Origin: Dictyostelium discoideum
Lineage: Eukaryota
Length of the DNA stretch: 64,000 bases
NCBI GenBank assembly: GCA_000004695.1
Contig: CM000154.2
Coordinates: 2,208,001-2,272,000 of the forward strand
Direction of reading: 5' to 3'
Each line of letters begins with the position of its first letter. Within the stretch, counting starts at the first letter, position 1. Shown one piece after another: positions 35,747-57,446 of this stretch. The position numbers and the translations under genes were made by a program. The notes under the pieces are model-generated. The model did not search any database. It saw only the letters and a list, made by a program, of their open reading frames with translations, and had not been told where the DNA came from.

Positions 35747-36502
35747 TCAGTTATTACTTGAAAAGATAACATCAGAAAGTGTAGCTAAACCAGACGTTGT
35801 TGGAACACTTCTTTCATCGTCTTCATTGGTTGTGTCATTTTTGATGATTTTCATTTCAGTATCAATTGATTGTGATTGTGATTGTGATTGTGGTTGTGAT
35901 GATGATGATAGATTTATGAATGATGATGATGAGGATGAACATGGTGTTGTAGTTGTGGAGGAGGACAAAGATGTTGATGGTGATTGGGTGTGTGGATTTA
36001 AAACCAAGGATATTCTTTCAATCTCTTTATTGATTTGAATAGAGATGATTTCTTTATCAGAAGTTAATGAATTCTCTTTAATAGTTTTTAAATTTTCAGT
36101 AATTTGTTTCAATTGTTCTTTAAGTTCTTTAATCTCTTTAACTTGATCATCATTATTATTATCTTTATTGTTTTTTGTGTTTACAGTTGACGATGATGAT
36201 GATGGATCATCAATTTCATCGATAATGGTTTCCATATTCGATAAAGGAGGTGTATTGGTATTACTACTATTGGATGATGATACTTCAGAGCTACCATTGG
36301 TTTGTTGTAGATGTTGAGATAAGGATGGTGTTGATGATAAGGATGATAAATTATTTAACAAATTTGTTGAGGATGAAGATGAAACTTTATGATTATTATT
36401 ATTATTATAATTATTATAATTATTATAATTATTATTATTATTATAATTATTATTATTATTATTATTATTTAAACCTCTTGGTGATGAAATGCCATTATGA
36501 TG

Positions 36503-36601
<99 letters not shown>

Positions 36602-38494
36602 ATTATTCATTCTTGGAGAAATAGGTGAATCCAAAGTGTTAGCATTTCCAATTAATGTATTTTGATTATTTGGTGAGAAAAATCCAGACATCATTGGGGT
36701 CATTGGAAGTGGTGGTATACTACCATTATTAATATTACTTTCAGTATGTGCTCTTTTTCTTTGACCAGTATGTCTTTGTTTATTATTGCCATTACCATTT
36801 GGTAATGATGATAACAAATTATTTGAAGAGAGTGAAGAAGTTTCTTTCATAATTTTTAATTGAGTTGTTAATTGATTAAAGTTTTCATGAATTTGTTTAT
36901 CGATTGAACTATGATACAAGATATTATTATTATTTGAGCTATTATTTAAACTATTATTAGTTGATGAAATTGGTGACGTTGTTAAAGAGTTAACATTACT
37001 ATTATTTGAGATATTTGGTAATTGTTGAGAAGGTGAATGAATACTATTATTTGAATTATTAAGTGAATGTGGTGTTGAAATTATATTAATTGGTGAAGTT
37101 GAAGTTGTTGTTGTGGTGGTTGTTGTTGTTGCTGTTGTTGTTGATGTTGTAGTATTATTATTATTATCATTAATTGGTGAATTAATTGGTGAAGAACCTA
37201 ATAATATTTCATCTTTTGAATCATCACTACTCATTTCTTCTTCAAGTGCAACACTTGTTAATTTTTTCATATTATCTTTAATTGGTGTGACATCAATAAT
37301 ATCTTTATCTTTATGATCTTTATGATCTTTATCCTTATGATCACGAGAAGTATTTGTAGAAGAAGATTTTGGAGAATGTAAAATATCACGTTGACTATAA
37401 CTATGAGTATCCTTTACAACACTTGATGAATCATTTTCGCTATAACTTCTTTTTCTTTTTGTAATGATTTTCTTTGCTTTAATTTCATCCCATGGATCAG
37501 AGATTTGTCTCATTCTCCAATAACCATTTTGTTTGTATTGTTCCATACCACTTTCAAATAAATTTTTACTATGACTTAACATATCTTGAATTTGTTTATG
37601 CCAATTATCCGATCTTTTCTTATCCAAACATAAAAGGTTCCAATGTGCAGTCATAAAACCATAAACATCAGTCTTTAAATTTAAAAATGGTTTTTGAGGC
37701 ATTTCCAATTGAAGACAAAAGAATACTATTTTCATTATGCATGCCCATGTTGGTGATTGACTATTTGCAAATGGACTACCACGTTTACAGAGAATACATT
37801 CTTTAAAAACGCATTGAACTGATGTTGATGGTGATGGCGATGACTCTTGATTACCTCCCATTGTTGGTGAATGAAGTCCAATTGGTAATCCCCATGTTGG
37901 TGATGAAATACTATTATTACTGTTATTATTACCATTACCACTTACACTACTACGTGGATAAACAGGAGTTGGTGGTGGAGGTGGTGGTGGTGATGATACA
38001 TTATTATTATTACTACTACTGTTGTTGCTGCTGCCGCTGCCGCTGCTGCTATCATTAAAATTACCATTTGAAATACACTCAAGTATTGATGAAGGCGAAG
38101 GAGGTTGGTGAGTTGGTATTGGTGAGGATGGTGTTGATGAGGAATTATTTTTCATTTCCAATAATATCTTATAAGAAAGTGAATCATGTTTTGGTGGTTT
38201 GGATATAGTTGGTGGTGATGTTGTTCTTGGTGATAATGTACCTGCTAATAAAGATGATGTGGAAGATGGACTACCACAAGTTAATTTCTTTATTGCTCCT
38301 TCTACATCTCTAACTGCGAGCATTAATGGGCTATTTGGTAATATTGCTGGTGTAGTTTTTGGTGTAGTTGTTATTATTGGTATTGGTGTAGAAGGTGTAG
38401 TTATTCCTGTTGTTGTTGTTTTTGTTGTTTTTGTTGTTGTTGTTGATATTATTGGATTTGTCTCTCCAGAAAATACTAAACTCTCCTTTAACAT
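35747..38494 (-). CDS. Hypothetical Ser/Thr/Asn-rich nuclear-type protein, 915 aa, with a Cys/His-containing central domain
   Basis: A single ORF with an ATG at 38494. The central non-repetitive block is …CVFKECILCKRGSPFANSQSPTWACIMKIVFFCLQLEMPQKPFLNLKTDVYGFMTAHWNLLCLDKKRSDNWHKQIQDMLSHSKNLFESGMEQYKQNGYWRMRQISDPWDEIKAKKIITKRKRSYSE…, which looks zinc-finger-like and has an NLS-like KRKRS. It is flanked by poly-N, poly-T and poly-S tracts and a C-terminal coiled coil. Family not recognised. Confidence 0.55.
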
Positions 38495-39764
38495 TTTTAA
38501 TTATATATGTATATATATATAAAATATGTTATTGAGTTGGTATTATTTGGGTTGAATTTTTTTTTTTTTTTTTTTTTTTTTTTGTTTTGTTTTGTCTTTG
38601 TTTCTGTTTTTGTTTTTGTTTTTGTGTGGCTATTTATTAATATGCTTCTCTATTTTTGAATTTTTTTTTTTTTTTTTTAAAAAAAAAAATATGATAAGTG
38701 ATCGGTTGTTTTTTTTTTTTTTTTTCTTATTATTTTAAAAAAAAAAAATTATATACAATGAATAAAAAAATGAATAAAAAAAATAAAAAAAATTAAAAAA
38801 TATGTTGGGGTTTTTTTTTTTTTTTTTTTATTTTTTATTATTATAATTATTATTATTATTTAAAAATAGAAAAAGAAAAAAAAATGAAAATGAAAATGAA
38901 AATGAAAATAAAAATAAAAAATAAAAATAGATTTTAAAATTAATTAAAAAAAATGAAAATAAAAAAAAAAAAAAAAGTGAAAATGGGAAAATGAAAAAAA
39001 AAAAAAAAATATATATATATATTAAATTGTTTTTATAAATATTTATAAAAACAATTGAGAGGATCTAGATGAAGTTAATAGTATAGGATTATTTAAACAA
39101 GGGACTACTTTTTTTTTGTGATGTAAATGTGATTATTATTTTTATTACTGTTATTATTATTTATTATTTTTGGTGTGGTGTGGATGATTTTTGGCTTTTT
39201 TTTTGTTTTTTTTTTTTTTTTTTGGGTTTTTTTTTTATTTTTTGTGATAATATAAAAAAAAAAAAATTAAATTAGAAAAAAAGAAAAAAATTAAAAAAAT
39301 TAAATAATAATAATATAATTATTTTTTATATATACAAGGATTATTATTATTTTAATTGGTGCCAAATTATTATTTAATCGAACGTTTTTTTTCTTTTTTT
39401 TTCTTTTTTTTTTTTTCTATTTTTTTTTATCTATGTTAATCTGTAAAAAAAATAAAAAATAAATAAAGAAAAAAAAAAGTTTTTTATTTATTATCAAGTT
39501 GATGAAATGACGAACGAAAAAAACAGAACGAACGAATGTAATATGTATTAATTTTGTGTGTTTTTGTTTTTGGTGTTTTTATTGGTTATTTTTTTTTAAA
39601 AAAAGATTTATTAGGTGTGTCGGATATAAAACTTTGTGAGGTGAGTGTTTTAGTTATTGTGTGTTGGTTGTTGTAGTTGAAAAAAGTAGTATTATATTTA
39701 AATAATATTTTAAAGAAATTGAATTCTGTGCCCTATAATAATTAATTTTCAGATAGAATAACTA

Positions 39765-39810
<46 letters not shown>

Positions 39811-40483
39811 TGTAAAAAAAAAAATGTTGGTGTTAATAGATCATTAAAAATATAAAACTCTTTTATGTACAAAAAAAGAGAAAAAAACAAAAATGAAAAA
39901 ATAAAAAAGAGAAGAAAAAAAAAAAAAAATAGATAAAGAAAAGAGAAAATTAAATTAAAAAAAAAAAAAAAAAAAAATGAGTGATAGTGAGTGTAGAAAT
40001 TGAATTAAATTAAAAAAAAAAAAAAAAAAAAATTTAAATTTTTTAGAGCGGTCGTTATTAAATTAAAAAAAAAAAAAATTAAAAAAATTAAAAAAATTTA
40101 AAAAAAATAAAAAAAAAAAAATAAATAAAAAAATAAATAAAAAAATAAATAAAAAAATGTTCAATTAACCTTTTTTTTTTTTTTTTTTTTTTTAATTAAA
40201 TTAATTGGGAAAAAAAAAAAAAAAAGTTTGATGTTATAACAATCATGGGACGAGGGTAATTAATTATGAGGAAACTAAATGGTTCCGTTCGTTTTTTAAA
40301 AAAAACAAAACAATTTAAAAAAAAAAAATTTTTAAAAAAAAAATTTTCATTTTTTTTTAATTTAATTTACATTATTTTTTTTTTTTTTTTTAAAAATTAT
40401 TCCCTATGGGGCCGGGGGGCTTATTTTTTTCAAAAACTCAAAAAATTTGGGCCCCAATGTTTTTTATTAAATAAAAAAAAAAA

Positions 40484-40527
<44 letters not shown>

Positions 40528-40850
40528 TTATTTCAAGAAAAAAACTTTCGTTCGGATAAAAACACAACCAAAATTTGTTTTGTTTTTCTGAGGATAAAAA
40601 ATAATTTCATTTCCTTTTTCTTTTTTTTTTTAATTTTATTTTTATTTTATTTTAATTTTTTTTTTTTTTTTATTATTTTTATTTATTTTATTTTTTTATT
40701 TTTTTTATCGCTTTGCCAGCCAATAAACAATAATCCAAAAAAAAAAGTAAATTTAATTCACTTTTTGATGTGGCTTTAATTTTTGGTTACTATCTGGCTT
40801 ATATTTATAATACCCACTCTTTTAGTGGAGTATAAAATATCTGTTTATAG

Positions 40851-40885
<35 letters not shown>

Positions 40886-40956
40886 TATTAAAGTGGAAAT
40901 GTTTTATTGGATGACTCAAATGTATATTTTAATTTTTATCCAACAATCAATAGATT

Positions 40957-40988
<32 letters not shown>

Positions 40989-41116
40989 ATACTTAATAAC
41001 TTTTTACCTCATATATTTTTTTTATTTTATTTTTTATTTTATTTTTTTATTTTATTTTTTTTTTTTTTATATATTAATCAAAGTTTAGCCATTAAAGGCA
41101 ACTGCTGCTGTTTTTA

Positions 41117-41148
<32 letters not shown>

Positions 41149-41617
41149 AATTTTAAAGTTGTTAATGAAATATTAATAATAATATTGATTAATCAGAGTT
41201 TATTTATTAAAGGAAATAAACAACAATAATTATTAATTTATTTTTGAATTTTAATTTTGGAATAAAACGCAATTATTATTAATTTTAATTTAAATTCTAA
41301 TAAAGAATTTTAATTTTAAAAATATAATACTGTATTATTTCTCGATAATAAGATTTAATTTAAAATATTTTTCTTTTTTTGATATATTCTAAAGTAGAGG
41401 CTAGTTTGAACGTCGAGTATTTTTTTTTTTTTTTTTTTTTAATTTTGATTAATCAGAGTTTATCTATTAAAGGGAACATATAAAAAATTGATTAATTTTT
41501 TTATTTTTTTTATTTTTAAAACATTGGTGTAATTTTATATACTAAAAAAAAAAGAGTTGGGATTTATTTGTTAAAGTCCAAAACTAAAAAAAATAAAAAA
41601 AAAAAAATAAAAGAGGG

Positions 41618-41727
41618 TTTATTTGGTCAGATTTGTGCGAACACGGACGGTTAATTTCAAAGCCTACGAATGAACGCGAGCTCAACAGACGATCAGATAA
41701 TGTGCAACCAATCATCATTCAAATATT
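41618..41727 (-). ncRNA. Candidate box C/D snoRNA, about 106 nt
   Basis: The minus-strand sequence is 5'-UAUUUG A AUGAUGA U UGGUUGCACAUUAU CUGA UCGUCUGUUGAGCUCGCGUUCAUUCGUAGGCUUUGAAAUUAACCGUCCGUGUUCGCACAAAU CUGA CC AAAUA-3'. It has a perfect box C (AUGAUGA), a D' box (CUGA) 15 nt downstream, a terminal box D (CUGA), and a 6-bp terminal stem (UAUUUG/CAAAUA) flanking C and D in the canonical way. It sits on a GC island of about 45% in a 4-kb AT-rich spacer. Confidence 0.45.
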
Positions 41728-42571
41728 ACCCTTTACAAAAAATAAAAATGACAAATTTTCATTGTTTTTATTCATTTAAAAAACATCATTTTTTTTATTC
41801 ATTTTTTATTATGGGTCAAAAATTTTTTTAAAAAAAACGAAAAAAGTCATTTTTTTTTTTTTACTTTTTCCCCAAACACCGATATGGTTTTGGCAAAAAC
41901 ATATTCATTTAAAATTTATTTATAACTATTTAGAAAAAAAAAAAAAAAAAAAAAAATTATTCTTTCCAGTTTCCAAACAATTGTATAAGAGGAATGCATT
42001 AAGGGTATCATTCTGATGTCAAAGTCCAACAATATTCAGCTAGAAATATCTTTCAAAAATCTATTATCATTATAATCATTTCATTATTATTAATCTCAAA
42101 TATTTAAAATAAATAAAATAATAAGAAATTAGGTTTCACTCTTAAAGTTTTATTTTTAAAATTTTATTTATTATTAAAGTTTGCACTATGGAAATCTTTT
42201 TTGAGTATTAAATACATTAAAAGTTTTTTATTTTTAGATTACAATACCCATAAAGATTTAATTTTGTCATTCTGTTTTTTTTTTCTTTTTAAGGAAATTA
42301 AAAAACTCCTTTTTTTTTTTCTTTTTTATACACATTTATATAAAAAAAATAAAAAATAAAACATTAAAAAAAAAAAACTCGCGCCTTTTTTTCATAAAAA
42401 AAAAAAAAAAGTAAAAAAAAAAAAAAAAAGGAATTTTTTTTTTTTTCCAAAGTTGTTTTTTTTAAATATACATTTGCTCATTGAGCTATACACAATAATA
42501 ATAAAAATAAATAAATAAAATAAAAGTTGTAATAAATATTTAAATAAATATAAAAAAAAAAGATAAATAAA

Positions 42572-43309
42572 ATGTCAAGTGAAAATCTTCCACCAGATGT
42601 TATTAAAAGAGTAGTTAAAGAATTAAAAGAATTAAATTCGTCAACATTAGAAGGTATTACATTATTACCATGCGAAGAAGATATAACAAATATTGAAGCA
42701 GTAGTTACAGGACCAGCAGGAACACCATATGAAGGTGGTTATTTTAAAGCAAGATTAATTCTCTCTTCCGATTTCCCAAGATCACCACCAAAAGCAAACT
42801 TTATCACTAAAATATTTCATCCAAATGTTTCAAAAAAAGGTGAAATTTGTGTAAACACTTTAAAAAAAGATTGGACTGAAGATTTAGGTTTAAAACATAT
42901 TCTATTGGTAATGTATTATTTAATTTAATAATAATGAAAAAAAAAAAAAACTATTATTAATATTTTATTTATTATTTTTATTATTAAATATATATAGACA
43001 ATTAAGTGTTTATTAATTGTACCAAATGCTGAATCATCTTTAAACGAAGATGCATCAAGATTACTTTTAGAAAATTATGATGATTATTGTAAACATGCCA
43101 AATTATTTACATCAATTCATGCATCAAAACCAATCATTGATAGTAACAATAATAATGAAAATTCAACAACCACACCAACAACAACTACAACAGCAACTAC
43201 ACCATCAACAAACACAGCTTCTATTTCATCACCAGTTAAAAAGAAAACTGAAACTACAAATTCAACAACCACAAAAGTACAACCAAAGAAAAGTTTAAAA
43301 AGATTATAG
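42572..43309 (+). CDS. ube2s: Ubiquitin-conjugating enzyme E2 S (UBE2S/E2-EPF). Two exons: 42572..42907 and 42998..43309, 215 aa
   Basis: Exon 1 reads [24 protein letters not shown]…[55 protein letters not shown], with the UBC fold and catalytic Cys in HPNV…GEICV. Donor GTAATG, acceptor TATATAG. Exon 2 reads [37 protein letters not shown]…KKSLKRL*, which matches human UBE2S (…[30 protein letters not shown]…LRRL). Confidence 0.85.
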
Positions 43310-43613
43310 AGTGAATCATAATCATAACAACTTCAACATACTCTTTTAAGCATGTAACATAACAATTTAAAAAAAAAAAAAAAAAAAAAATGCACTCATT
43401 CATCACACAGAGAGAATATCGCTATGTTTGTTCAAGGTGTATTTTAAAAATTTAATAAAAAAAAAAAAAAAAAAAAACCAAAAAAAAAAAAAAAAAAAAA
43501 TAATTCCCAACACCTTCTCCTTTTTTTCTTTTTTTTTTTATTAACCAAAACAGTTTTATTTTTACACTTCAACCATTCAAGTTTTAAAAAAAAAAAATAA
43601 AAAAAAAAATAGA

Positions 43614-44834
43614 ATGATTTTAAACTATAACTATTTTAGAATTGAAAATAATAATAATAATAATAATAAATTTGAAGATTTAAATAAATTATTTTTTAAA
43701 ATATGGAGAAATTTAATAATTAGGAATGAAATTTTAGAAAATGTTAGAAAATTTAAAAGATTTGAAAAATTACCAAAGATATGTGTTAGTTCTTATTATA
43801 TAGAGAATGAAAATAGATATTTTTATAAAAGAGTATTAATTAATGGTAGCAGTAAAAAGGAAATAATTGAGAAATTATCATATCTACCTCATACAGTTGA
43901 AGAATTAACAATTGAATATAAAAGTATTGAAGACCTACCAACCTCAAAAATATCAAATACTACCTACTTCATTCCACCATTTATAACAACATTAATATTT
44001 GAAAATTCAATTCAAGATTCAAAGATTGCATTTAATTTCATACCACCAACCATTAAAAAATTAATATTACCAATATATTTTAATCAACCCTTAAGAAATA
44101 CAATTAATGAATCAATTTTCCCAATGAATTCAAGTTTAGAATCAATTGATTTCGGTGAGAGTTTTAATAAAAATCTATATGATTTACCAAAATCTTTAAA
44201 ACAAATTAAATTGTCAAAAGATTTCAACTTAAAATTAAATAAAAATTCAATACCAAAGAATGTAAAAGAAATTGAATTTGGTAGCAAATATTCAAAATTA
44301 ATAGCAAATAATGTGCTACCACCATGTGCAATTGTAAAAAAAGCGTATACAATTAATTACAGAATTCAGATTTATAAGGCCTATGAAAAAGTATTCATCC
44401 CGAATTGGACAAAATCTTTAATACTTGGTCCAAGATGTAATGTTGACCTTTTACCAAACTTGTACAATTTAAAAATTAATTACCTATCATTGAATTGTAA
44501 AGGGTATTCTGATCTATCAAATATTTCAAAATGTAATTCAATTAGGTATATTAAATTTGGTGAAAATTTCTCACAATCAATTTCAATCAATGATTTACCT
44601 CCAAAGTTAGTTTCATTATACTTTTCAAAATCATTTTACCAAACAATTACAAAATCAATGTTACCAAAAAATTTAAATTTTTTATATTTAAAATCTGATA
44701 ACATCGATATTGAATTCCCATTAAATATGAAATATTTAGCAATATTTATTTCAAAAAATAATAAATATATTATTAATAAAATTAATGAAGATCCAAATAT
44801 AATTAAAGAAAATAAAATTCATATAGTTTTATAA
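43614..44834 (+). CDS. FNIP-repeat-containing protein, 406 aa
   Basis: A single ORF from the ORF track. It contains repeated units such as IPPTIKKLILPIYFNQPL, LPKSLKQIKLSKDFNLKL, IPKNVKEIEFGSKYSKLI, LPPKLVSLYFSKSFYQTI and LPKNLNFLYLKSDNIDIEF, which match the Dictyostelium-expanded FNIP repeat (LPxSLxxLxFGxxFNQxI). The N-terminal …LFFKIWRNLIIRNEI is typical of the family. Confidence 0.8.
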   Translation: MILNYNYFRIENNNNNNNKFEDLNKLFFKIWRNLIIRNEILENVRKFKRFEKLPKICVSSYYIENENRYFYKRVLINGSSKKEIIEKLSYLPHTVEELTIEYKSIEDLPTSKISNTTYFIPPFITTLIFENSIQDSKIAFNFIPPTIKKLILPIYFNQPLRNTINESIFPMNSSLESIDFGESFNKNLYDLPKSLKQIKLSKDFNLKLNKNSIPKNVKEIEFGSKYSKLIANNVLPPCAIVKKAYTINYRIQIYKAYEKVFIPNWTKSLILGPRCNVDLLPNLYNLKINYLSLNCKGYSDLSNISKCNSIRYIKFGENFSQSISINDLPPKLVSLYFSKSFYQTITKSMLPKNLNFLYLKSDNIDIEFPLNMKYLAIFISKNNKYIINKINEDPNIIKENKIHIVL

Positions 44835-44901
44835 TAAAACTAATAATAAATAATAATTTTTGTTAGTTTTTTTTTTTTGTTTAAAAAAATTACTTTTTTA
44901 T

Positions 44902-45483
44902 TTAGTTTTCAGCGGTTTGTTGAGTGAATTCAAAGACAACTTCTTTACCAGTTAATTTGTGGTAGACAGCAGAGAAGGAGTCAACTTTAGAGATGTTTGA
45001 TAACATTTCTTTACGATCTAAGTAGATTTTGTGGAGTTTTGAACCATCTAATCTGTATCTTAAACGACGACCAACAATAGTGTTTGGGAATACTAAATCA
45101 TCGAGAATAGCATCGTGGACAGCTTTAATGGTACGGGAGATTGGTCTCTTTTGCATTTTAATCTTGTTGTTTGAGGCTGGCTTACGGATGATACGTCTTT
45201 GGGCAATGAACATAACTTGTTTACCACCGAGTTTCTTTTCAACTTCATAGGTTAATTTTTGTTGGATTTTGTTGTAGTTTTTGAGTTGACGGAATGGAAC
45301 AAAGATGACAACAGCTTTTTTGGATTCAGCAACATCGACTTCCTTGACTGAACAGACTGATAAATCTTTTAAGTCTTTTAATTCGGCGTTGTTGTTTTCC
45401 AAATCAACTAATGCTTGGGCAACAGTGTTTTCGAATTCAGTGGCAACTTTACCAGCTGGTTTGATGATTTTCTTGTTAAGCAT
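44902..45483 (-). CDS. rps7: 40S ribosomal protein S7 (eS7), 193 aa
   Basis: The ORF aligns along its whole length to human RPS7: …IKPAGKVATEFENTVAQALVDLE…KAVVIFVPFRQLKNYNKIQQKLTYEVEKKLGGKQVMFIAQRRI…RTIKAVHDAILDDLVFPNTIVGRRLRYRLDGSKLHKIYLD…VYHKLTGKEVVFEF. Confidence 0.9.
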   Translation of the reverse strand: MLNKKIIKPAGKVATEFENTVAQALVDLENNNAELKDLKDLSVCSVKEVDVAESKKAVVIFVPFRQLKNYNKIQQKLTYEVEKKLGGKQVMFIAQRRIIRKPASNNKIKMQKRPISRTIKAVHDAILDDLVFPNTIVGRRLRYRLDGSKLHKIYLDRKEMLSNISKVDSFSAVYHKLTGKEVVFEFTQQTAEN

Positions 45484-57373: not shown

Positions 57374-57446
57374 GGGGATGTAGCTCAGATGGTAGAGCGC
57401 TCGCTTAGCATGCGAGAGGTAAAGGGATCGATACCCTTCTTCTCCA
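57374..57446 (+). tRNA. tRNA-Ala (anticodon AGC) with an atypical T-loop, followed by a T8 terminator
   Basis: The sequence GGGGATGTAGCTCAGATGGTAGAGCGCTCGCTTAGCATGCGAGAGGTAAAGGGATCGATACCCTTCTTCTCCA folds as a cloverleaf. The acceptor stem GGGGATG/CTTCTCC includes the G3:U70 Ala identity pair, the A-box reads TAGCTCAGATGGTAGAG, and the anticodon loop is CTTAGCATG (AGC at 57407..57409). The T-arm is AAGGG-ATCGATA-CCCTT, so position 54 is A rather than T and the B-box (GGGATCGATACC) deviates from GGTTCGANTCC. TTTTTTTT at 57447..57454 is a Pol III terminator. Confidence 0.75.

Follow-up and report, generated by a model that had tools for sequence, protein, structure and literature searches.

Does a short, GC-rich interval on the minus strand of Dictyostelium discoideum chromosome 5 encode a small nucleolar RNA (snoRNA), and if so, which RNA is it and what would it guide? 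The interval, positions 41618-41727, lies within a stretch of 64,000 nt (contig CM000154.2 of assembly GCA_000004695.1, positions 2,208,001 to 2,272,000 of the forward strand), which was analysed over its full length and is here called the window. An earlier note, made from the sequence of the window, had described the interval as a candidate box C/D snoRNA. The feature is real and already known as a named, database-listed gene: the locus is almost certainly the single-copy, independently transcribed gene of the box C/D snoRNA DdR-7 (CD7), at 2249625-2249721 on the minus strand of chromosome 5. The DdR-7 RNA was reportedly cloned by Aspegren et al. 2004.

Identity and anatomy of the DdR-7 (CD7) gene

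When the whole window was scanned against Rfam at the gathering threshold, two matches were obtained, and one of them was a tRNA. The other was to RF01575 (DdR7, 'Dictyostelium snoRNA Dd7') at 41624-41721 on the minus strand, with a score of 123.9 bits, well above the 80-bit gathering score, and an E-value of 2e-21. The match spans model positions 1-98 of 98, and 98 of the 98 bases equal the consensus. The box C/D snoRNAs of the DdR-x series with ribosomal RNA (rRNA) targets were renamed CDx by Diesend et al. 2022 (PMC8817022), and Table S5 of that paper lists CD7 at chr5 2249625-2249721 on the minus strand, with a length of 97 nt and 44.33% GC. The published coordinates, strand and length correspond to 41625-41721(-) of the window at a constant offset of 2,208,000, and the GC content that we computed for 41625-41721 was also 44.33%. 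The published CD7 oligonucleotide ATTTGTGCGAACACGGA (PMC8817022) is the reverse complement of 41647-41631. Within the published set of Dictyostelium C/D snoRNAs the match was to CD7, and coordinates, strand, length, GC and oligonucleotide all agreed; it is the same gene, and no difference from DdR-7 / CD7 was found. The RNA class proposed in the earlier note was therefore correct, as both the Rfam match and the published entry show, but the word candidate does not apply to an RNA with its own Rfam family and an entry in Table S5 of PMC8817022, and the transcript expected at about 105 nt is published as a mature RNA of 97 nt. Expression of the CD7 RNA is taken from the literature: CD7 has an RNA-seq expression term in Table S4, and Northern blots of the 17 original snoRNAs were made by Aspegren et al. 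2004, according to PMC8817022.

The features of the RNA and its flanking stem are as follows.

41720-41725, minus strand: 5' arm of the terminal stem, UAUUUG (minimum free energy (MFE) fold; 6-bp stem in Table S4)
41625-41721, minus strand: mature box C/D snoRNA DdR-7 / CD7 (Rfam RF01575 and Table S5 of PMC8817022)
41712-41718, minus strand: box C, AUGAUGA (sequence and Table S4 of PMC8817022; invariant in D. citrinum and D. firmibasis)
41686-41700, minus strand: D' antisense element UUAUCUGAUCGUCUG (duplex in Fig. S6 of PMC8817022; invariant in three species)
41682-41685, minus strand: box D', degenerate UUGA (published assignment; internal hairpin directly after it; invariant in orthologues)
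41662-41681, minus strand: internal hairpin of 6 pairs with a 6-nt loop, juxtaposing D' and C' (MFE fold)
41654-41659, minus strand: box C'-like UGAAAU, degenerate (directly 3' of the internal hairpin; invariant in orthologues)
41631-41653, minus strand: D spacer / antisense element (Fig. S5 and Table S7 of PMC8817022; positions 1-18 invariant in three species)
41627-41630, minus strand: box D, CUGA (sequence and Table S4 of PMC8817022; invariant in three species)
41620-41625, minus strand: 3' arm of the terminal stem, CAAAUA (MFE fold)

Read along the minus strand, the order is ...GGGUAAUAUUUGA-AUGAUGA-UUGGUUGCACAUUAU-CUGA-UCGUCUG-UUGA-GCUCGCGUUCAUUCGUAGGCUU-UGAAAU-UAACCGUCCGUGUUCGCACAAAU-CUGA-CCAAAUAAACCC..., with 26 nt from C to D', 22 nt (the hairpin) from D' to C' and 23 nt from C' to D. 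All four values given for CD7 in Table S4 of PMC8817022 (box C AUGAUGA, box D CUGA, a terminal stem of 6 bp and a C-D distance of 81) were reproduced from the window sequence. Box C lies near the 5' end and box D near the 3' end, 81 nt apart, and the internal boxes D' and C' are represented by the degenerate UUGA and UGAAAU, which flank a conserved hairpin. The C' assignment was made in this analysis; C' boxes are not printed in PMC8817022. The parts from which the earlier note had recognised the RNA were all in place, namely the AUGAUGA (41718-41712), the CUGA 15 nt after it (41696-41693, with UUGGUUGCACAUUAU, 41711-41697, as the spacer), the terminal CUGA (41630-41627, preceded by CCGUCCGUGUUCGCACAAAU, 41650-41631) and the perfectly complementary 6-bp stem UAUUUG/CAAAUA, which is also present in the MFE fold. 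The annotated RNA (41721-41625) includes 3 nt ahead of box C and 2 nt past box D, and about 2 bp of the stem that juxtaposes the two boxes lie inside these ends. Because most of the stem is outside the annotated mature RNA (4 of the 6 nt of the 5' arm and 5 of the 6 nt of the 3' arm), it appears to be mostly a feature of the precursor. In eukaryotic C/D snoRNAs, external stems aid the assembly of the small nucleolar ribonucleoprotein and are later trimmed. The z-score for overall fold stability was +0.48, a value that is uninformative and expected for a C/D snoRNA.

The same layout was searched for on both strands of the window, as RUGAUGA followed after 40-110 nt by CUGA, with 6 bp or more in the terminal stem, and dinucleotide shuffles served as the control. 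Among 35 RUGAUGA/CUGA box pairs, a count that in our reading is inflated by GAT/ATG trinucleotide repeats, a single one had such a stem, and this was the CD7 locus. The shuffled sequences contained on average 0.03 such arrangements each, and 3 of 100 contained any. The arrangement of boxes and stem at the CD7 locus is thus beyond chance. The GC content was 39.1% over 41618-41727, 44.3% over 41625-41721, 15.2% over the rest of the 38500-42570 spacer and 21.6% over the whole window.

CD7 shares with canonical eukaryotic dual-guide box C/D snoRNAs, such as yeast U24 and the human U24/U76-type RNAs, a C/D kink-turn with a terminal stem, an internal D'/C' pair, two antisense elements and a target opposite the fifth base upstream of D or D'. 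It differs from them in its degenerate D' (UUGA) and C' (UGAAAU), in the 22-nt linker that forms a hairpin, in having targets in two rRNAs (17S and 26S) and in an unusually weak D duplex. CD7 would be expected to assemble the core box C/D proteins (fibrillarin, Nop56/58 and Snu13) on the kink-turn formed by AUGAUGA and CUGA, with the 6-bp external stem in the precursor, and the degenerate C'/D' motif (UGAAAU and UUGA), closed by the internal hairpin, would offer a second protein platform. The protein composition of the CD7 particle is presumed.

Orthologues in related dictyostelids

A UBE2S-like gene 850 bp from the snoRNA has orthologues in eight dictyostelid assemblies, as found in one protein search, and the sequence within 10 kb on either side of each orthologue was scanned with the Rfam DdR7 model. 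DdR7 matches adjoined UBE2S in three of the eight assemblies: a second D. discoideum strain, D. citrinum and D. firmibasis. The CD7 sequence of the second D. discoideum strain was identical (core identity 100%), the D. citrinum orthologue (L002 8783-8879) scored 115.6 bits with a core identity of 97.9%, and the D. firmibasis orthologue (L001 9571-9667) scored 106.4 bits with a core identity of 92.8%. Identity to the window in the 5' flank was 96% for the second strain, 69% for D. citrinum and 59% for D. firmibasis, and in the 3' flank it was 88%, 56% and 45%, respectively.

No change was seen across the three species in any of the four boxes, in the 15-nt D' element or in 18 nt of the D spacer. 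A change in the boxes of D. firmibasis had earlier been named as an outcome that would speak against the snoRNA, and no such change was present. The closing pair of the terminal stem, G41720-C41625, is replaced by A-U in D. firmibasis, which is a compensatory change. In the internal hairpin 100% of cells were paired, with one change from U.G to C-G in D. firmibasis, and the remaining substitutions in CD7 fell in the bulge and loop of the hairpin (D. firmibasis) and at two spacer ends. In both D. citrinum and D. firmibasis one A is deleted, 5 nt upstream of the CUGA at 41696-41693. As read from the aligned sequences, the pattern of substitutions is the one predicted for a functional C/D RNA.

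No observation speaks against the identity of the locus as CD7, but the following points weigh against the wider reading of the gene. Covariation was weak, with three distinct sequences in the comparison, and 181 of 500 shuffles reached the observed score. No DdR7 match was found at the syntenic position of D. purpureum, where ±10 kb of UBE2S was searched, or within 10 kb of UBE2S in A. subglobosum, C. fasciculata, T. lacteum and H. album. The thresholds for these more distant dictyostelids were E<=1 for loci L003 and L008 and the gathering score for loci L005-L007, and none of them contained an exact D' guide. DdR7 is also not among the DdR families named in a D. giganteum preprint. A metagenome scan for box C followed by the D' guide gave 0 matches. 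The corresponding scan for the D guide followed by box D gave two (L009 and L010), which were rejected as chance matches in GC-rich, non-dictyostelid sequence without an upstream box C and without an Rfam DdR7 match. As far as tested, DdR7 orthologues are confined to the clade of D. discoideum, D. citrinum and D. firmibasis, and the orthologues in D. citrinum and D. firmibasis are new as far as our literature search reached.

Guide elements and their rRNA targets

Box D' of CD7 has been assigned to 17S-Cm991 and box D to 26S-Gm711, both of them RiboMeth-seq sites (PMC8817022). On this published evidence, Cm991 and Gm711 are genuine 2'-O-methylated positions, and yeast, human and Arabidopsis lack methylation at both of them (PMC8817022). 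We infer that CD7 is the guide responsible for both. The strength of the two guide duplexes was calculated with the rRNA fragments printed in the supplement of PMC8817022.

The printed D' duplex joins snoRNA 5'-UUAUCUGAUCGUCUG-UUGA-3' to rRNA 3'-CAUAGACUAGCAGAA-5' (PMC8817022). Positions 2-14 of the D' element (41687-41699) pair with 17S 5'-AGACGAUCAGAUA-3' in 13 contiguous Watson-Crick pairs, and C991 stands opposite G41690, which is position 5 upstream of UUGA. The energy of the duplex was -20.7 kcal/mol (RNAduplex), and 0 of 2000 shuffled guides were as good. An rRNA complementarity of at least 10 nt, to which the earlier note had tied its snoRNA reading, was thus found, with the target at position 5 of D', in the register of UUGA. 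The D' element would pair with 17S AGACGAUCAGAUA so that C991 is placed at the fifth nucleotide for 2'-O-methylation by fibrillarin, and this guide function appears well supported by the sequence.

The earlier note had placed D' elsewhere, at the CUGA of 41696-41693, with UUGGUUGCACAUUAU as the guide that would methylate the nucleotide opposite its fifth base. This CUGA is a perfect D-box consensus at a distance from box C, 15 nt, that is plausible for a C/D RNA, and UUGGUUGCAC is also kept in D. citrinum and D. firmibasis. However, the published D' is the UUGA at 41685-41682, and the CUGA is part of the guide itself, inside the D' antisense element UUAUCUGAUCGUCUG and within the 13-bp perfect complement to 17S. 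In the CUGA register the fifth position is occupied by A and would direct methylation to a U, but the mapped target is C991, and with the two rRNA fragments that are printed the guide of this register paired only weakly (-5.6 and -6.0 kcal/mol). No stem closes the 33 nt that separate the CUGA from the C'-like box, but UUGA is immediately adjacent to the hairpin; UUGA is favoured as D' because it and the C'-like UGAAAU directly flank this hairpin. The register of UUGA is further favoured because the 1-nt deletion in the orthologues spares the 13-bp element but shifts the duplex of the CUGA register and so breaks it. A functional D' at CUGA is thus highly improbable, though a second, overlapping use as a guide is rejected less firmly, since the comparison covered the printed rRNA fragments. 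The same deletion bears on the possibility that the GC island is instead a small protein. A 44-aa open reading frame (ORF), MMIGCTLSDRLLSSRSFVGFEINRPCSHKSDQINPLLFFFFYFF, is present in the list of open reading frames at 41584-41718(-), with its start ATG inside box C, but it was rejected because the deletion in D. citrinum and D. firmibasis shifts the frame early and leaves the RNA features intact. The ORF also ends in a low-complexity poly-F tail that comes from the downstream T-run, and the match of the locus to an RNA family is full-length, so a protein-coding origin of the island is barely conceivable. The preferred reading is a C/D RNA with D' at UUGA.

The second guide of the earlier note, before box D, is the published one, and its fifth nucleotide, C41635, faces 26S-G711 (positions 1-10 are 41631-41640). 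PMC8817022 is inconsistent on this target, which for CD7 is '26S-Am711' in Table S5 but G711 in Table 1, Table S7 and Fig. S5; the G711 reading fits because guide position 5 is C41635. Position 6 of the duplex is an A/C pair, as described in PMC8817022. The D element would thus act on an expansion segment of 26S rRNA through a much weaker duplex than the one formed by D'. Two results speak against the assignment: positions 1-10 contain 6 Watson-Crick pairs, 3 G.U pairs and 1 A/C pair, with an energy of -6.9 kcal/mol, and 38% of shuffled guides matched the energy of the D guide against the printed 26S fragment. Guide-target pairs were accepted in PMC8817022 from 7 bp upwards and with no more than one mismatch, which is permissive. 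The assignment of the D guide to 26S-G711 is weak, and it is the least secure half of the mechanism.

A reading in which the D element is not a true Gm711 guide therefore has to be weighed. The D element would then be an orphan with another target, or would serve mainly for accessory pairing with 26S, and the D' half alone would be a conventional guide. Of the duplexes listed, the published one with G711 is one of the least stable and does no better than shuffled guides against the same fragment, and G711 is the only methylated site within an expansion segment (PMC8817022), yet the 18 nt before box D are invariant in three species. On the other hand, the whole RNA is 93-98% conserved, and invariance of the D spacer is then not specific evidence. 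G711 lies exactly opposite position 5, no other guide was found for this mapped site in PMC8817022, and the other Dictyostelium guide-target pairs of the same study likewise include G.U-rich duplexes and duplexes with A/C at position 6. The distal part of the D spacer offers a stronger pairing, since positions 10-18 (GUCCGUGUU, 41640-41648(-)) form 9 bp with the 26S fragment AACACGGAU at -13.1 kcal/mol, a value reached by 0 of 2000 shuffles, in a comparison that was post hoc and made with a single fragment. The fragment AACACGGAU is printed in PMC8817022 for the CD24/Am844 duplex and adjoins Am841/Am844. A match of this kind in about 5.7 kb of rRNA is not unexpected, and we regard the pairing of GUCCGUGUU and AACACGGAU as a lead only, which may reflect accessory pairing. 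Taken as a whole, an orphan or accessory role of the D element is unlikely.

Gene unit, promoter and neighbourhood

Three further features extend the gene beyond the RNA.

41575-41869, strand not assigned: conserved snoRNA gene unit of about 290 bp, with promoter, RNA and short 3' flank (blastn)
41729-41742, minus strand: T-run and GT(A/G/T)A(A)GGG block (GTAAAGGG) just upstream of the RNA (conserved alignment columns)
41809-41816, minus strand: DUSE-like element ACCCATAA, 88-95 nt upstream of the mature 5' end (motif match)

In blastn comparisons, 41575-41845 of the window aligned with the minus strand of the D. citrinum locus (L002 8931-8664), and 41604-41869 aligned with the minus strand of the D. 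firmibasis locus (L001 9691-9415). In both cases the two flanks aligned on the plus strand. Judged from these alignments, the unit of about 290 bp is inverted in D. discoideum, in both strains, relative to D. citrinum and D. firmibasis, where it has the same direction as the UBE2S gene. The inversion also delimits the autonomous gene. The snoRNA unit is bracketed by a T-run at 41419-41440 and an A-run at 41936-41957, both about 22 nt long, which together make up a perfect inverted repeat; these tracts could be mediators of the inversion or a coincidence in a homopolymer-rich genome.

The DUSE motif is [AT]CCCA[AT]AA (PMC3188802) and usually lies about 60-63 nt from the start site. At the CD7 locus, a 15-nt block, ACCCATAATAAAAAA, was invariant at -95 to -97 in the two strains of D. 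discoideum, D. citrinum and D. firmibasis, and the surrounding flank had diverged. The 8-mer itself was not enriched in the window (14 observed and 23.6 expected), and the weight of the element comes from its conserved position across the aligned species. Like the DUSE-driven genes for non-coding RNAs in Dictyostelium (Class I RNAs and small nuclear RNAs), CD7 has the motif [AT]CCCA[AT]AA, kept in sequence and distance across species. It differs from them in that the element is 88-97 nt from the mature 5' end, not about 60-63 nt, and in having no AAATGTG 'TGTG box'. No link between DUSE and snoRNA genes was found within the accessible publications, and a scan for bacterial-type promoters and terminators gave nothing relevant. 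The T-run with the GTAAAGGG block is a possible start-site or processing element on the basis of its conserved columns. Because the DUSE-like element is at about 95 nt and the canonical distance is about 60-63 nt, the spacing suggests a CD7 start site about 30 nt before the mature 5' end, close to this block, with later trimming of the leader. We infer that transcription of CD7 proceeds in this way from the putative DUSE-like element, with a trimmed 5' leader.

The other genes in this part of the window, and the tRNA detected in the Rfam scan, are listed here.

35747-38494, minus strand: low-complexity protein of 915 aa, rich in long tracts of poly-N and poly-T (ORF)
42572-42907 and 42998-43310, plus strand: UBE2S-type ubiquitin-conjugating enzyme, 215 aa, two exons (intron GT...AG, 42908-42997)
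43614-44834, plus strand: FNIP-repeat protein, 406 aa (length and synteny with annotated loci)
44902-45483, minus strand: ribosomal protein S7e, 193 aa (length and synteny with annotated loci)
57374-57446, plus strand: tRNA-Ala(AGC) (Rfam, 58.1 bits; ARAGORN)

The spacer had been called otherwise empty, and this was approximately right: only low-complexity poly-F and poly-K ORFs lie between 38494(-) and 42572(+). No other Rfam match was found in 38500-45000 at E<=5, and the Class I RNA motif CTTACAGC was absent from the spacer, where matches with one mismatch occurred at chance level only. A GC island at 42650-42850 was considered as an RNA and rejected, as it is exon 1 of the UBE2S-like gene. 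Small GC islands (24-28% GC) are present at 39050-40850 in a spacer that is otherwise about 10% GC, for example at 40395-40460 with GGGGCCGGGGGG and GGGCCCC; no Rfam match and no credible ORF was found in the islands of 39050-40850, and much of 38824-40865 aligned with D. citrinum at 72% identity (blastn). In D. firmibasis, an annotated gene for a 769-aa VWA-domain protein (L001 6194-8906(+)) lies between a 922-aa gene and the snoRNA. It had no blastn counterpart in the D. discoideum spacer, and the comparison suggests an insertion or a loss in the intergenic region. At L001 19697-19769, D. firmibasis also has a tRNA whose printed sequence is identical to that of the tRNA-Ala(AGC) of the window.

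A bolder proposal is that the D spacer is perhaps not a simple Gm711 guide and that its distal half, GUCCGUGUU, forms a helix with 26S at about 845-853; separately, the gene would be transcribed from DUSE with a leader of about 30 nt. We consider this decidedly unlikely. If true, CD7 would tether or chaperone domain I of 26S, rescue a weak guide by extra pairing or target a non-rRNA, and the transcription from DUSE with a leader of about 30 nt would extend DUSE-type promoters to snoRNA genes.

As a discovery, CD7 is unimportant: it has long had a family of its own in Rfam, and Diesend et al. 2022 assigned its two targets with reference to RiboMeth-seq data (PMC8817022). The locus does show that a genuine C/D snoRNA can be recognised from raw sequence as a GC island in AT-rich Dictyostelium DNA. 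It also shows that a perfect internal CUGA is an unreliable marker of D'; here it is part of the guide and would misdirect a search for targets, in both register and nucleotide. For the dictyostelid snoRNA field, the small additions are orthologues limited, as far as tested, to one clade, a conserved DUSE-like element at a non-canonical distance, the inversion of a unit of about 290 bp and the weakness of the Gm711 assignment.

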